From Deltaproteobacteria bacterium (GTDB lineage: Bacteria; Desulfobacterota_D; UBA1144; Nemesobacterales; UBA2774), in contig JAJCZS010000007.1 in assembly GCA_029262275.1 (NCBI GenBank), forward strand, positions 382,031 to 446,030: a stretch of 64,000 nt of DNA, written 5' to 3'. The position numbers and the translations under genes were made by a program. The notes beneath the pieces are model-generated. The model saw only the letters and a list, made by a program, of their open reading frames with translations, ran no database searches and was not told the DNA's origin. Below are positions 52,032 through 60,275 of this stretch, one piece after another. Position 1 is the stretch's first letter. Each line of letters starts with the position of its first letter.

Positions 52032-53285
52032 TTACCCTTCTAAGAGCAAGGATTCCGGATCTTGTATAAGTTCCTTAAGCCTTACCAAAAACTGTACAGC
52101 TTCTCTTCCATCTACAATCCTGTGGTCATAGCTAAGGGCTACATACATCATAGGTTTGATCTCAATCTCACCGTTTATTACTACAGCCCTGTCTTCAATT
52201 TTATGGAGACCCAATATCCCGACCTGAGGCGGGTTTAATATTGGCGTGCTCATGAGGGAGCCAAAAACACCACCATTTGTTATTGTGAAAGTGCCGCCCA
52301 TTATGTCTTCTAATGAAAGAGTATTTTCTTCTGACTTAAGAGCAAGATCTTTGATCTTTTTCTCTATTTCGGCAAATGACATGCCATCTGCATTCTTGAG
52401 TACAGGTACTACAAGTCCTTCGGAAGCCCCAATTGCAACTCCAATGTCATAGTAGTGTTTAACTATCATATCGTCGCCGTCTATTTCTGCATTTATAGCT
52501 GGAAATGCTTTAAGCGCTCCGATTGAAGCTTTAATAAAGAATGAATTTAATCCTAAATTTACTCCATGTTTCTCTCTAAAAGCTTCCTTACGTCTTTTCC
52601 TGAGCTCCATAACGGCGGTCATATCAATCTCGTTAAACGTAGTTAGCATCGCAGTTGTTTGTGATGCTTCCAACATTCTTCTGGCGATAGTGCGCCTTCT
52701 CCGAGACATCTTTATGCGCTCTTCTCTTACTTCTCTAGCTATGGGGAACCCGGGAGATTCCTGAATTTCTACAACCGCTGGGGTTTGAGGCGCAGGTTTA
52801 ACCTCTGGAGCCTCTATTTCAGACTCTTTAATCTCCATTTCCATATGTCTCTCTACATCTTCTTTTGTAATACGTCCACTTGGGCCGGTTGCCTCTACTT
52901 TACTTATATCAATATCAAATTCTTGAGCTAGATTTTTTGCGACAGGTGTTATTTTCTCATTTGTATCATCTTTTGGTTGTTCCACTTCTGTTGCTTCAGA
53001 GACTTCTTCGACAACAGCCTCTTTAGGGGCAGCATTTGATGCGGGGGCACCTTCTTCTAGTATTCCAAGTACTTCACCCACTTCGACGTCATCATCTGCA
53101 TTTTTTAGTATGCTTTTTATAACTCCCGGCTTCTCCGCAGCAACCTCAAAATTAGCTTTTTCTGTCTCTAATTCAAGCAGCGCTTCGCCGATCTTAACAG
53201 AGTCTCCTTCAGACTTAAACCATCTGATTACAGTTGCTTCAACTATGGATTCTCCTAATTCAGGAACAATTATATTTGTTGACAT
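52032..53285 (-). CDS. sucB: 2-oxoglutarate dehydrogenase E2 (dihydrolipoamide succinyltransferase).
   Basis: N-terminal lipoyl domain (ETEKA), a linker, and a catalytic domain with DHRxxDG. The likely start is the Met at 53285, which has a GGAGAG ribosome-binding site; the ORF track extends to 53300. Confidence 0.85.
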   Translation of the reverse strand: MSTNIIVPELGESIVEATVIRWFKSEGDSVKIGEALLELETEKANFEVAAEKPGVIKSILKNADDDVEVGEVLGILEEGAPASNAAPKEAVVEEVSEATEVEQPKDDTNEKITPVAKNLAQEFDIDISKVEATGPSGRITKEDVERHMEMEIKESEIEAPEVKPAPQTPAVVEIQESPGFPIAREVREERIKMSRRRRTIARRMLEASQTTAMLTTFNEIDMTAVMELRKRRKEAFREKHGVNLGLNSFFIKASIGALKAFPAINAEIDGDDMIVKHYYDIGVAIGASEGLVVPVLKNADGMSFAEIEKKIKDLALKSEENTLSLEDIMGGTFTITNGGVFGSLMSTPILNPPQVGILGLHKIEDRAVVINGEIEIKPMMYVALSYDHRIVDGREAVQFLVRLKELIQDPESLLLEG

Positions 53286-53303
53286 TGTATGTCTCTCCAA
53301 TAA

Positions 53304-57211: not shown

Positions 57212-58995
57212 TGGGCTTTAGCCTCCTGTTTTTCTTCTTGCTCTAATATTTGATTTACCAGATAGCCAGGTCTGTATGGAAGACCGTCATATCTGCATAT
57301 GCTAATAATTTTACTAGAGTTGGCTCCCTGGTGCATTAACAGGCGAGCTAATTGACCTTGCGCATTTAAATCGATTACGTAAACACGCTCACAGCTCTCT
57401 ATAAACTCAATTGTATCATCGAGCACAGGCCATATAGTTCTTGGCTGATGATATTGAGTTTTGATTCCCTGTTTTTCGAGCTCTTCTACAGCTTCTAGAA
57501 TAACTCCATACATCATGCCAATTCCAATAAATCCAATTGGCGCCTTAGGGTCTCCAAACTGACGTCCCTTTGGCAATTCTTTTTTTGCTTCCTCTATTTT
57601 ATGAAAACGTTTGTCCATCATTTTTACACGGTTCTTAGGATCTGTTGATACTAGTCCAAACTCATCGTGTTCATTACCTGTTACAAGCGACATTCCTCCT
57701 GGTGTGCCGGGAGGAGCAAATGCAGAAACACCGTCGTCTGAAAACTCATAGCGTTTATAGGTCTCTAATTTAGCTACTTGTTCTGCTGTAAGTCTTTTTC
57801 CTGGTTCAACTTTTACTTCATCAAGTTTAAATGGTTTTACGCTTGCAATATTTTGTGATAATGCCTGGTCCATAGCTATAACCACTGGGCATTGATATTT
57901 ATCGGCCAGGTTAGTTGCATCAAATGCTAGATAAAAACAGTCATCAGGATGCCCTGGTGCAAGTACTATTCTTGGAAAATCTCCATGTCCGCCAAATACC
58001 ATAATGTTTATATCGCTTTGTTCAGGTTTTGTAGGCATTCCGGTGCTTGGGCCTGAGCGCTGACAGTCCACTAGCACCATTGGAACTTCGCCTGAGCCGG
58101 CGTGTCCTATACCTTCTTGCATTAGTGAGAAGCCCGGGCCAGAAGTGGCTGTCATAGTCCTCACTCCTGTAAGAGCAGCTCCTATTGCCATATTGATTCC
58201 TGCAAGTTCATCTTCAGTTTGTCTTGCAACTCCTCCACAACGTGGAAGCCATTTCTGAAGAGTTTCTAATACCTCAGAAGAAGGTGTAATAGGATATCCA
58301 GTGAAGAACCTTCCTCCAGCAACCATAAATCCAAAAGCTACAGATTCATTGCCCATAAGAAGAAGATGCTCTTCAGGCTCTGTATGCTCAATTCTGTATA
58401 TTCCTTCACCGTGCTTAATTCCCATTTCATCAGCCAGGTGGAGTCCAAGGTCTAATGCCTCTAGGTTATAATCAAGGATTATTTGTCCTCGGCGTTGAAA
58501 ACGTTTTGTGAAAGTATCGCGCATAGCATCGTCTTCAAGACCTAAAAGACGACCTACTATTCCAAACGCAATACTGTTTTTATATAGTTCACGGCGCATT
58601 GTGCGCATAGCAATACGATTGAAGGGGGCAGCGTATAATCTTGTGCCCTCAGGTAATAATCCCTCAGGAAGCGGACCACTTGAATCATCAAACACTACGA
58701 TGCTCTCAGAATTAATCTGGTGTGCATTCTTTTCTACAGCTTCCTCATCCAGTGCTACAAGTAGGTCTATATGGCTTCCCACACAAAAGCGTTCTCCTGT
58801 GAATGCTCTCATTGTAGCTGCGGCATGACCGCCTCTTATTCTGGATAAAACATCTCTTTCTGTATAAACGTTAAGCCCTGCATTGCGAAACAGGTCTGCA
58901 AGCATGGTTATAACGGTAAGTGAACCATCTCCTCCCTGACCTGCTACAATAACGTTAACGTCTTCAAGTACTGGTTGGCTGTTGTTGGAAGTCAT
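57208..58995 (-). CDS. korA: 2-oxoacid:ferredoxin oxidoreductase alpha subunit with a fused gamma domain.
   Basis: 595-aa protein with an N-terminal gamma-like domain (VIVAGQGGDGS) followed by the alpha domain. Confidence 0.85.
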   Translation of the reverse strand: MTSNNSQPVLEDVNVIVAGQGGDGSLTVITMLADLFRNAGLNVYTERDVLSRIRGGHAAATMRAFTGERFCVGSHIDLLVALDEEAVEKNAHQINSESIVVFDDSSGPLPEGLLPEGTRLYAAPFNRIAMRTMRRELYKNSIAFGIVGRLLGLEDDAMRDTFTKRFQRRGQIILDYNLEALDLGLHLADEMGIKHGEGIYRIEHTEPEEHLLLMGNESVAFGFMVAGGRFFTGYPITPSSEVLETLQKWLPRCGGVARQTEDELAGINMAIGAALTGVRTMTATSGPGFSLMQEGIGHAGSGEVPMVLVDCQRSGPSTGMPTKPEQSDINIMVFGGHGDFPRIVLAPGHPDDCFYLAFDATNLADKYQCPVVIAMDQALSQNIASVKPFKLDEVKVEPGKRLTAEQVAKLETYKRYEFSDDGVSAFAPPGTPGGMSLVTGNEHDEFGLVSTDPKNRVKMMDKRFHKIEEAKKELPKGRQFGDPKAPIGFIGIGMMYGVILEAVEELEKQGIKTQYHQPRTIWPVLDDTIEFIESCERVYVIDLNAQGQLARLLMHQGANSSKIISICRYDGLPYRPGYLVNQILEQEEKQEAKAQ

Positions 58996-60275
58996 TTACT
59001 TTCAGCTCCTCCATCCGTAGGTTTCTTGTAGTCTTTATAAAGTGTTTTTGGATTTGTATTGCCAAGCTCTACTCTTTCTTGGTAAGTAGGCATTAGAGCG
59101 GGCAGTGGTTTATTTCTTTTTATGTTAGATAGTCTTATTAGAAGCTCTTTAGCTTTTGGTTCAGATTCTTCCTCAACAATTTCAAATAGGTCCGCATCCA
59201 CAGCAGCCTGCCAGAACTTATGTCCTTGCTCTGTTCTAATTGCTACGAATGTCCATCCGCTAAGCCCGATTCCTCCCACACCTATATCGGCATGCTCTGC
59301 TGAGTAGTCCAAACAGTATAAACATGCAGGGCGTGCAAAAGGATGGAACTCCTTTAGCTTCATAACAATCTCACGACCATCTCTGAGTTCTACGATTACT
59401 TTTCCTTTTACGTTCACATTTACAATATCTATGGGATCAACATCTAGCTCCTTAGCTATATAACTGATGTGTTCATGTGTAAAACTCTCTGAGCAGAAAA
59501 GCCCAATTGTTAGTGCTACATTTTGTTGATACCATTTTGCAACCTCAAGACGAATACTGCTGAACTGCTGTTGTCTAACGCCGTCTATTTGACAAGGAAC
59601 TCCAACAACGGCAAGCGGTTTTACATCTTGGCGCATAGCCTCTGTTAATGCCATAGTGTTAGGGGAGTATGTGTAGCGTGAGCCGCTGCAATTTTTTATC
59701 TCTTCAGCTGTGGTTGCCAGTTTTTGAATTCCAACCTGAGGATTCTCAGGCAGTACGTCACCTGTGACAACGCCGTTTATTGCTCCATTCTCTAAAGCAT
59801 GTACTAAAAGAGCGCTTGTTACACCGCCGTCCTGACCACCATCTAAGAACTCTTTGTCTTTAGCGCGGGCGATTACTGCATAGTTGTATGGTCCAAATCC
59901 CTCATCCTTTACAGGCTGCTTAAACCCAAGAAGTGTTTGCAAGTCTTTGTCTAGCGGTCTTAGAACAGGGCAAACATCAGCGCACAGTTCACAGAACACG
60001 CAAGCATCATTTCTAGTGTCTACTGGATGCTCATCTTTATAGTCAAATACGTCTGTTGGGCAAATAGTTACACAGGCTGCGCATCCGACGCACTTTTCTG
60101 TATCAACTATTTCCCGCATTAGAAAATCTACCGCTTTAAACCCTCCGCGGTTTATCTCAGATCTCCAAGCGTAAGCCCATTCGTAAGGGTCGACACCCTC
60201 TTCAAGCATTTCGCGGTATTTTTTTTGAACTGACTGGACTAGCTTCTCATCATTACTAATCTCTTGGTTACTCAT
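58992..60275 (-). CDS. Fusion of a 2x[4Fe-4S] ferredoxin with an FrhB/FdhB/FpoF-family flavin-FeS domain. It sits in the delta-subunit position of the KOR operon.
   Basis: Two CxxCxxCxxxCP clusters (CVGCAACVTICP, CVFCELCADVCP), followed by FrhB_N-like (GGQDGGVTSALLVHALENG) and FrhB_C-like regions. Its 3' end overlaps the korA start by 4 nt. Confidence 0.65.
   Translation of the reverse strand: MSNQEISNDEKLVQSVQKKYREMLEEGVDPYEWAYAWRSEINRGGFKAVDFLMREIVDTEKCVGCAACVTICPTDVFDYKDEHPVDTRNDACVFCELCADVCPVLRPLDKDLQTLLGFKQPVKDEGFGPYNYAVIARAKDKEFLDGGQDGGVTSALLVHALENGAINGVVTGDVLPENPQVGIQKLATTAEEIKNCSGSRYTYSPNTMALTEAMRQDVKPLAVVGVPCQIDGVRQQQFSSIRLEVAKWYQQNVALTIGLFCSESFTHEHISYIAKELDVDPIDIVNVNVKGKVIVELRDGREIVMKLKEFHPFARPACLYCLDYSAEHADIGVGGIGLSGWTFVAIRTEQGHKFWQAAVDADLFEIVEEESEPKAKELLIRLSNIKRNKPLPALMPTYQERVELGNTNPKTLYKDYKKPTDGGAESK

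Follow-up and report, generated by a model that had tools for sequence, protein, structure and literature searches.

A 64-kb stretch of DNA from an uncultured marine Deltaproteobacteria bacterium (contig JAJCZS010000007.1, assembly GCA_029262275.1), called the window below in its whole length, carries at 52032-60275 five open reading frames (ORFs) that fill this region and all lie on the minus strand. An earlier note had described them as two 2-oxoglutarate-oxidizing systems placed back to back on the same strand, the NAD-linked sucAB genes and a kor cluster (KOR, 2-oxoglutarate oxidoreductase) separated by a 215-nt spacer, and the ORF boundaries agree exactly with that layout. The kor-type unit comprises three genes, and the first of them, which that note missed, encodes according to Pfam a protein of the FrhB family and not a Kor subunit. 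We propose that this FrhB-type subunit is a coenzyme F420-reductase module, and that the three-gene unit (hereafter the trio) is, on balance probably, a 2-oxoacid:F420 oxidoreductase, the trio and sucAB being two separately promoted units that fill the F420 and NAD pools, respectively. The features concerned are the following (nt, nucleotides; aa, amino acids).

58992-60275, minus strand: FrhB-type subunit gene, first of the kor-type unit (427 aa)
57208-58995, minus strand: KorA-type alpha subunit gene (595 aa, domains III-I-II)
56333-57211, minus strand: KorB-type beta subunit gene (292 aa)
56118-56332: spacer between the kor-type unit and sucAB (215 nt)
53304-56117, minus strand: sucA, 2-oxoglutarate dehydrogenase E1 component (937 aa)
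52032-53285, minus strand: sucB, dihydrolipoyllysine succinyltransferase E2 component (revised, 417 aa; ORF to TTG 53300, 422 aa)
60463-60491, minus strand: promoter-like element of the kor-type unit, from comparative alignment
56190-56218, minus strand: promoter-like element of sucAB, from comparative alignment
7091-8023, minus strand: luciferase-like monooxygenase (LLM)-class oxidoreductase, predicted F420-dependent (TIGR03560), ~45 kb away

Within the kor-type unit the start and stop codons of the FrhB-type and KorA genes, and those of the KorA and KorB genes, overlap by 4 nt (ATGA) each, and GGAGG-type ribosome-binding sites stand before the korA start (GGAGGAG) and the korB start (AGGAGG). 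Because of these overlaps and ribosome-binding sites, the three genes seem to be translationally coupled, which suggests co-translation in fixed proportion.

The FrhB-type first subunit

The FrhB-type subunit consists, by Pfam, of a 2x[4Fe-4S] ferredoxin domain (Fer4) at residues 56-104 followed by FrhB_FdhB_N and FrhB_FdhB_C at residues 134-370 (70.9 and 125.2 bits, both exceeding the Pfam cut-off), and the FrhB domain as a whole spans residues 126-390. The cluster ligands are Cys62/65/68/72 and Cys92/95/98/102 in the ferredoxin domain and Cys228/261/318/321 in the FrhB-like domain, which would carry FAD (flavin adenine dinucleotide) together with a [4Fe-4S] cluster; all twelve cysteines are invariant in an alignment of 57 family members. 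FAD-region motifs, including QDGG, are common to this subunit and FrhB. The subunit keeps 56-65% identity across phyla, and its N-terminal extension of ~55 residues and its C-terminal tail are conserved and clade-specific.

The best solved relatives by sequence were FrhB (146 bits; 34-35% identity in a structure-based alignment) and then 8RJA_E and 8RIU_B, which align over residues 49-386 and so cover both the ferredoxin and the FrhB domains, while the match to HCAR, a member of the family that does not use F420, reached 36 bits. In the AlphaFold model (mean predicted local distance difference test score, pLDDT, 68) the FrhB domain scored 76-97. When the model was compared with the PDB by Foldseek, the top 13 matches were all F420 enzymes, with HCAR ranking below them at 17-20% identity, and the fold match to FrhB had a TM-score of 0.82-0.84, normalized to target length.

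The closest known parallels in layout are the add-on subunits of the CO dehydrogenase (8RIU_B) and the formylmethanofuran dehydrogenase (8RJA_E) of Candidatus Ethanoperedens, which have the same order of an N-terminal 2x[4Fe-4S] domain and an FrhB-like FAD/[4Fe-4S] domain, and which turn normally ferredoxin-linked, CO2-releasing enzymes into F420 reducers (PMC11493965). Their identity to the FrhB-type subunit is 26-27% in the structure-based alignment. Ethanoperedens is an anaerobic archaeon, whereas the hosts of the trio are bacteria of reportedly aerobic lineages, the partner is a 2-oxoacid oxidoreductase, the N- and C-terminal extensions are unique, and the trio is known from sequence. The FrhB/FpoF-type proteins likewise share FrhB_FdhB_N/C, the four cluster cysteines, and the FAD-region motifs with the subunit, but it is not their orthologue, and the trio lacks the hydrogenase, Fpo, or sulfite reductase partner genes of those systems.

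Conservation and gene neighborhoods of the trio

Loci encoding an FrhB-type relative were gathered (85 loci, numbered L001 onward), and all five proteins of the region were placed in them by tblastn. The FrhB-type gene lies directly upstream of KorA in all 85, and KorB comes next wherever the contig reaches. The loci belong to ~10 phyla, with Dadabacteria, Bipolaricaulota, Alpha- and Gammaproteobacteria, Acidimicrobiia, Thermoleophilia, Chloroflexi/Dehalococcoidia, Gemmatimonadota, Myxococcota, and one Poribacteria bin among their labels, and the trio is found mainly in lineages reported as aerobic. The closest homologues (82-95% identity) are in metagenome-assembled genomes labelled Candidatus Dadabacteria or Thermodesulfobacteriota; there is no cultured host among the sampled family members, all of which come from metagenome-assembled genomes and bear automatic names only, e.g., "coenzyme F420 hydrogenase subunit beta." From a synteny unbroken in all 85 loci and from the ATGA overlaps we infer that the trio subunits form a physical complex. 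One locus with a Gammaproteobacteria label (L026) groups with Dadabacteria at 77% identity.

The neighborhoods outside Dadabacteria (~60 loci) point to F420 and supply the chief new evidence. When the ORFs flanking the trio at up to 3.5 kb (262 in all) were scanned against Pfam, the luciferase-like monooxygenases (Bac_luciferase) were counted 15 times, TetR at least nine, short-chain dehydrogenases nine, F420_ligase (CofE) at least six, CofD five, CofC three, and radical SAM proteins including CofH about five times; ferredoxin, flavodoxin, and rubredoxin families were not among the 25 most frequent flanking families. By tblastn over the whole loci, an F420 biosynthesis gene (cofE, cofD, or cofGH) stands beside the trio in 11 of the ~60 (L049, L054, L059, L061, L062, L068, L070, L072, L074, L077, and L080), in at least five arrangements and in Alphaproteobacteria, Gammaproteobacteria, and two actinobacterial classes. 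By our rough expectation, a five-gene pathway in a genome of ~4000 genes would appear in such flanks in only 1-2% of loci. Representatives from L059, L062, and L077 exceed the NCBIfam equivalog cut-offs for CofE, CofD, bifunctional CofGH, and the F420-dependent LLM family TIGR03619, and in L059 and L062 the genes follow one another on a single strand in the order LLM-LLM-FrhB-like-KorA-KorB-CofE-CofD.

These last two loci carry different phylum labels (Poribacteria for L059, Acidiferrobacteraceae for L062), have the whole LLM-LLM-trio-cofE-cofD cluster in common, and encode flanking LLM, CofE, and CofD proteins that are 92-94% identical, which points to faulty binning or else to a transfer not long ago. 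A divergent gene for a TetR-family regulator was also seen upstream of the trio in 12 non-Dadabacteria loci, including L001, L002, L036, and L041 (median distance ~110 nt), and is absent from the Dadabacteria trio loci; the regulator may be a dedicated repressor.

When the window and the Dadabacteria loci were searched by tblastn for cof and LLM genes, only an LLM gene turned up. The queries that retrieved it were LLM genes taken from the flanks of the trio in other phyla; it lies at 7091-8023 in the window and scores 247.2 bits against the TIGR03560 cut-off of 231.4. Its product is likely a consumer of reduced F420 in this genome, judging from this family assignment.

KorA, KorB, and the substrate

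KorA exceeded the cut-off of TIGR03710, the model for the alpha subunit of 2-oxoacid:acceptor oxidoreductases (587.3 bits vs. 482.75), and has the Pfam domains POR, POR_N, and PFOR_II, with a gamma-like domain fused to alpha. KorB has TPP_enzyme_C and PFO_beta_C and stays below every NCBIfam cut-off (TIGR02177, 229.3 vs. 261.9 bits; PRK11866, 251.8 vs. 402 bits); the expected domains and motifs are there, and the sequence is divergent. The best solved relative of KorA is 6N2N_A, from the 2-oxoglutarate oxidoreductase of Magnetococcus marinus (MmOGOR), with 375 bits, compared with 233 bits for the broad-specificity enzymes of Sulfolobus, while those of KorB are 5B46_B (160 bits) and 6N2N_B (151 bits).

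The catalytic residues are well kept. KorA has conserved, family-wide, the carboxylate-binding YPITP at 234-238, Arg313, and Thr318, which are invariant, together with Ser51-Arg52 and Asn441, and KorB has the GDGDG motif that binds thiamine pyrophosphate (TPP) and four invariant cysteines (18, 21, 52, and 200) for a single [4Fe-4S] cluster; Leu127 of the beta subunit is also conserved. YPITP, the carboxylate-binding Arg, the TPP GDG motif, and the four cluster cysteines are invariant in 72-75 family members and align with those of MmOGOR and of the Sulfolobus tokodaii enzymes (StOFOR). KorAB is predicted to be a two-subunit, single-cluster, TPP-dependent 2-oxoacid oxidoreductase. Both MmOGOR (6N2N) and StOFOR1/2 (5B46-5B48) have an alpha subunit with the same fused domains (III-I-II) and a beta subunit with TPP and one [4Fe-4S] cluster; like the trio they have no ferredoxin domain in alpha or beta, and they share with it YPITP, the Arg and Thr that bind the substrate carboxylate, and the CxGC loop. 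The trio differs in having a co-translated third subunit with a ferredoxin domain and an FrhB-type flavin module, and free ferredoxin is therefore probably not the acceptor. The pockets also differ, the trio having Thr/Ser55 in beta for Lys/Arg, Asn441 in alpha for Asp/Leu, and an Arg52 in alpha that is invariant and specific to this family.

Our estimate leans somewhat toward 2-oxoglutarate as the substrate of the trio, because KorA is nearest to the Magnetococcus enzyme, matches to the models of pyruvate, 2-oxoisovalerate, and indolepyruvate oxidoreductases (POR, VOR, and IOR) are weak or partial, and sucAB adjoins. The POR and IOR models gave 21-58 bits (the cut-offs of the POR, VOR, and IOR models are 399-650), VorB matched with 190 bits over only half of the model, and the VOR beta subunit gave 21 bits. 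With 587 bits for the model of the two-subunit 2-oxoacid:acceptor oxidoreductases and 375 bits for the Magnetococcus enzyme, KorAB stands apart from the four-subunit POR, VOR, and IOR enzymes and does not fall firmly among pyruvate- or branched-chain-specific enzymes, the outcome that the earlier note had named as refuting its view. The 2-oxoglutarate-specific equivalog models were not reached either (PRK09627, 243 vs. 579 bits; PRK09628, 130 vs. 364 bits). Two residues make the side-chain pocket ambiguous. Thr/Ser55 of KorB occupies the place of Lys49 in StOFOR1 (Arg in MmOGOR), and the K49I mutant of the StOFOR1 beta subunit loses its 2-oxoglutarate activity (PMC5020499); KorA has Asn at the position of Asp468 in the alpha subunit of StOFOR1. 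Pyruvate, or a broad specificity, is possible, as is the more general suggestion of the earlier note that the cluster acts on another 2-oxoacid. In favor of 2-oxoglutarate, marine Acidimicrobiia of the order UBA5794 are reported to possess korAB and to lack 2-oxoglutarate dehydrogenase (PMC12008989), although it could not be confirmed that these korAB genes are of the three-gene type.

The proposed reaction

In the mechanism that we propose, KorAB would oxidatively decarboxylate the 2-oxoacid on TPP to the acyl-coenzyme A (acyl-CoA), and single electrons would leave through the lone [4Fe-4S] cluster of KorB. In StOFOR, docking of an external dicluster ferredoxin has been modelled at the CxGC loop of this cluster (PMC5020499). 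In the trio the N-terminal 2x[4Fe-4S] domain of the third subunit would stand in for that free ferredoxin, and electrons would pass from its clusters to the [4Fe-4S] cluster of the FrhB domain and on to FAD, which would hand a hydride to its two-electron acceptor, F420 being the most probable one. In sum, the reaction would read 2-oxoglutarate + CoA + F420 -> succinyl-CoA + CO2 + F420H2. The potential of the substrate couple is about -500 mV and that of F420 about -340 mV, and because of this difference the transfer from 2-oxoacid to F420 would be strongly exergonic and effectively irreversible in the oxidative direction. The sucAB genes, for their part, would encode an ordinary NAD-linked 2-oxoglutarate dehydrogenase that takes its E3 from outside the window, and the two units would differ in the hydride pool they fill, F420H2 for F420-dependent reductases and NADH for respiration, and not in the oxygen regime. 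It is reasonable to speak of two routes to succinyl-CoA side by side.

Searches of the open-access literature found no account of an FrhB-type subunit with KorAB or of an F420-linked 2-oxoacid oxidoreductase, and a 2021 review of F420 names neither FrhB nor 2-oxoglutarate (PMC8498797). The enzyme of the trio is known, and so is the kind of module added to it; it is the combination and the host range that are undescribed. Early work on Methanobacterium extracts reportedly observed F420-linked oxidation of pyruvate and 2-oxoglutarate, which is said to have been ascribed later to ferredoxin-dependent enzymes. The 2-oxoglutarate:NADP+ oxidoreductase of Azoarcus evansii and the phenylglyoxylate:NAD+ oxidoreductase (PadEFGHI) reportedly follow the same principle, with a flavoprotein subunit added and a two-electron hydride carrier reduced; those flavoprotein subunits belong to a different family from FrhB, and the acceptor is NAD(P)+.

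Bacterial enzymes known to reduce F420 draw on glucose-6-phosphate or NADPH, and a 2-oxoacid-driven F420 reductase, if the proposal is true, would be a new electron entry into the F420 pool. We give about an even chance to the wider claim that the trio is an undescribed bacterial 2-oxoacid:F420 oxidoreductase, which would link a decarboxylation of central carbon metabolism, probably the 2-oxoglutarate step of the tricarboxylic acid cycle, directly to F420 reduction. It would be a main supplier of F420H2 to numerous uncultured bacteria of reportedly aerobic lineages (Dadabacteria, marine Acidimicrobiia, Gamma- and Alphaproteobacteria, Chloroflexi, and others), and here it would work in parallel to an NAD-linked dehydrogenase, so that electrons from 2-oxoglutarate are divided between the two hydride pools. 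According to the 2021 review, experiments had yet to address what F420 does in bacteria other than Actinobacteria (PMC8498797). The proposal would also change the reading of "korAB" in metagenomic reconstructions, where it is usually taken as ferredoxin-linked, oxygen-labile, and a sign of low oxygen (PMC12008989). The attachment of an F420 reductase to a ferredoxin-linked enzyme, of which the first case was reported in 2024 in an anaerobic archaeon (PMC11493965), would be extended as a principle to a different enzyme class, and in bacteria.

The sucAB genes and their separation from the kor-type unit

The sucA and sucB products exceed the NCBIfam equivalog cut-offs of PRK09404 (1092.6 vs. 764 bits) and PRK05704 (551.3 vs. 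449 bits), respectively, SucA with the Pfam domains 2-oxogl_dehyd_N, E1_dh, Transket_pyr, and OxoGdeHyase_C, and both are standard E1o and E2o members of the 2-oxoglutarate dehydrogenase complex. The sucB start is probably ATG 53285 and not TTG 53300, because the PRK05704 alignment opens at residue 6 of the TTG-started ORF and because this ATG, 15 nt downstream of the TTG, is preceded by a GGAGAG ribosome-binding site. In contrast to a complete complex, E3 is not encoded in the 64-kb window. The absence of lpdA here had been stated before and stands: the Pyr_redox domain is absent from the window ORFs of at least 416 aa, and the redox-disulfide motif of LpdA has no match in the six frames of the window. 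The E3 component is presumably encoded elsewhere in the genome; one lpd shared with the pyruvate dehydrogenase complex is common.

The genes sucA and sucB follow KorB only in a Dadabacteria subclade whose FrhB-type protein is at least 81% identical to that of the window (L003, L006-L023, L027, and L028, wherever the contig extends far enough). Dadabacteria at 77-79% identity (L004 and L024-L026) do not have sucAB next to the trio, and neither do the ~60 loci of other phyla. We therefore rejected sucAB adjacency as a general feature of the trio; it is a lineage-specific arrangement confined to one Dadabacteria subclade.

The spacer had been called promoter-like, and comparative alignment supports this. 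An alignment of 17 Dadabacteria spacers showed an unconserved 5' half and a conserved 3' part of ~110 nt, which contains a -35-like TTGCGA (56218-56213), a 17-nt spacer, and an extended -10-like TGcTACTAT (56198-56190). A scan of 51900-60700 for sigma-70 and terminator consensus sites found no site in the 215-nt spacer; the promoter-like element agrees with the consensus at 8 of 12 positions, one short of the 9 that the scan required, and so went unlisted. Upstream of the FrhB-type gene, TTGACT (60491-60486) is followed after 17 nt by TATTAA (60468-60463); across 13 aligned upstream regions from Dadabacteria the TTGAC core does not vary and the -10 region is conserved, and this element was omitted by the scan because its final -10 base is not T. 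No terminator-like site was found in the spacer or upstream of the FrhB-type gene. The kor-type unit and sucAB probably have promoters of their own, as the two conserved elements would indicate, and read-through from the kor-type unit into sucAB is possible.

Initiation at the kor-unit element would leave ~180 nt of leader ahead of the FrhB-type gene's ATG. Close Dadabacteria keep conserved blocks such as GGTGGCAAAATTAGCCAA and ACAATTGAATCG in this leader (60276-60462, minus strand), which could be regulatory; an Rfam scan at E<=1 gave no match in the region, the spacer, or the leader, and no known riboswitch. A further conserved block, AATAG(A/G)ATAACCG-N11-TTATCCAAAC, lies at ~60545-60585, flanked by the kor-type unit on one side and by divergent ABC transporter genes (60632-63690) on the other; some relatives show a short inverted repeat there (GGATAA/TTATCC), and the block may be an operator site.

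Alternative explanations

The first rival accepts the trio but gives its FrhB-type subunit another role, either feeding NAD(P)+, a rubredoxin- or flavodoxin-like protein, a quinone, or an unknown metabolite, or acting as a tethered ferredoxin with a flavin. We consider it unlikely, and yet several points do weigh against F420. The FrhB family has members with other partners, such as HCAR in plants, and an FrhAGB hydrogenase of Thermococcus is reported to reduce rubredoxin (PMC13333549). The subunit itself is below all NCBIfam equivalog cut-offs for FrhB and FpoF (PRK09325, 206 vs. 269 bits; FpoF, 136 vs. 475 bits), and a search of 1.8 billion representative proteins placed it in a separate clade, whose representative scored 563 bits; a few outliers scored 384-330 bits, and the archaeal FpoF/FrhB-type proteins reached ~240 bits at most. 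Solved structures do not define which residues make up the family's F420 site (PMC10229431), and in the AlphaFold model the ferredoxin domain and both extensions have pLDDT below 50, so that docking is not readable. As for the neighborhoods, ~80% of the non-Dadabacteria loci have no F420 biosynthesis gene nearby, and the window and the Dadabacteria loci examined yielded none; F420 biosynthesis in this genome rests on a phylum-level statement in the 2021 review, which lists Dadabacteria among the phyla that encode it (PMC8498797). An NADP+-reducing 2-oxoglutarate oxidoreductase, as reported for Azoarcus, would also be a precedent for this rival. Against it, the sequence is far nearer to F420 users than to HCAR, F420 biosynthesis and LLM genes recur beside the trio across phyla in several arrangements, and the small electron carriers that it calls for are missing from the frequent flanking families. 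F420 binding and hydride exchange by the FrhB-type subunit are what we infer from this genomic association.

The second rival is the one put forward in the earlier note, in which a ferredoxin-linked, O2-sensitive KOR and an NAD-linked 2-oxoglutarate dehydrogenase are paired so that one step of the tricarboxylic acid cycle can be switched between micro-oxic and oxic conditions. It has points in its favor: both units plausibly yield succinyl-CoA from 2-oxoglutarate, the separate conserved promoter-like elements make differential expression possible, and the adjacency holds in the Dadabacteria subclade though SucA identity falls to 67%. Mycobacterium tuberculosis, in which KOR and 2-oxoglutarate decarboxylase/dehydrogenase coexist in one aerobe, offers a precedent. 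Still, the proposal appears quite improbable to us. The acceptor module is built in and of the F420 type, and the FrhB-type gene together with the F420 biosynthesis neighbors in other phyla points to F420 rather than to the free ferredoxin that had been assumed. The host is predicted to have an aerobic respiratory chain because the window carries COX1 (heme-copper oxidase subunit I, 37220-38833, plus strand) and alternative complex III-like genes (83-5599, plus strand) for a molybdopterin/Fe-S protein and an NrfD-type membrane subunit. These genes, and the occurrence of the trio mostly in reportedly aerobic lineages, do not bear out the label "O2-sensitive-type," and single-cluster two-subunit enzymes of the KorAB class are known from aerobes (PMC5020499, PMC12008989). 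Many reportedly aerobic lineages carry the trio without sucAB nearby, as do the Dadabacteria whose FrhB-type protein is at 77-79% identity, and there is no oxygen- or redox-sensing regulator in the region. Because the host has genes for an aerobic respiratory chain, the class is present in aerobes, the F420-type module is built in, and the adjacency is lineage-specific, the oxygen-switch logic is unsupported; two acceptor pools, F420 and NAD, fit better, and for this window a model of two cofactor pools would replace the oxygen switch.

That the trio serves F420 biosynthesis, for instance by delivering low-potential electrons to CofGH, the radical-SAM FO synthase, or by reducing a dehydro-F420 intermediate, would agree with the cofGH, cofE, and cofD genes directly beside it in 11 loci and with the short CofE there (257 aa, without a fused reductase domain). 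We regard it as very improbable, since a whole 2-oxoacid oxidoreductase would be an expensive way to assist a cofactor pathway, no cof gene is near the trio in most loci, those of Dadabacteria all among them, F420-consuming LLM genes are equally frequent beside it as biosynthesis genes, and the FrhB fold provides the site at which hydride is exchanged with F420 itself (PMC10229431).

Other genes in the window

Two ORFs of 476 and 416 aa, at 23286-24716 (minus strand) and 4349-5599 (plus strand), had no Pfam match at E<=1e-5, and the latter falls inside the alternative complex III-like cluster. A cytochrome P450 gene is located at 18067-19434 on the minus strand (Pfam p450, 315 bits), and the ORF at 26051-27397 on the plus strand encodes a beta-propeller (PD40 repeat) protein with an IPTL-CTERM sorting motif.

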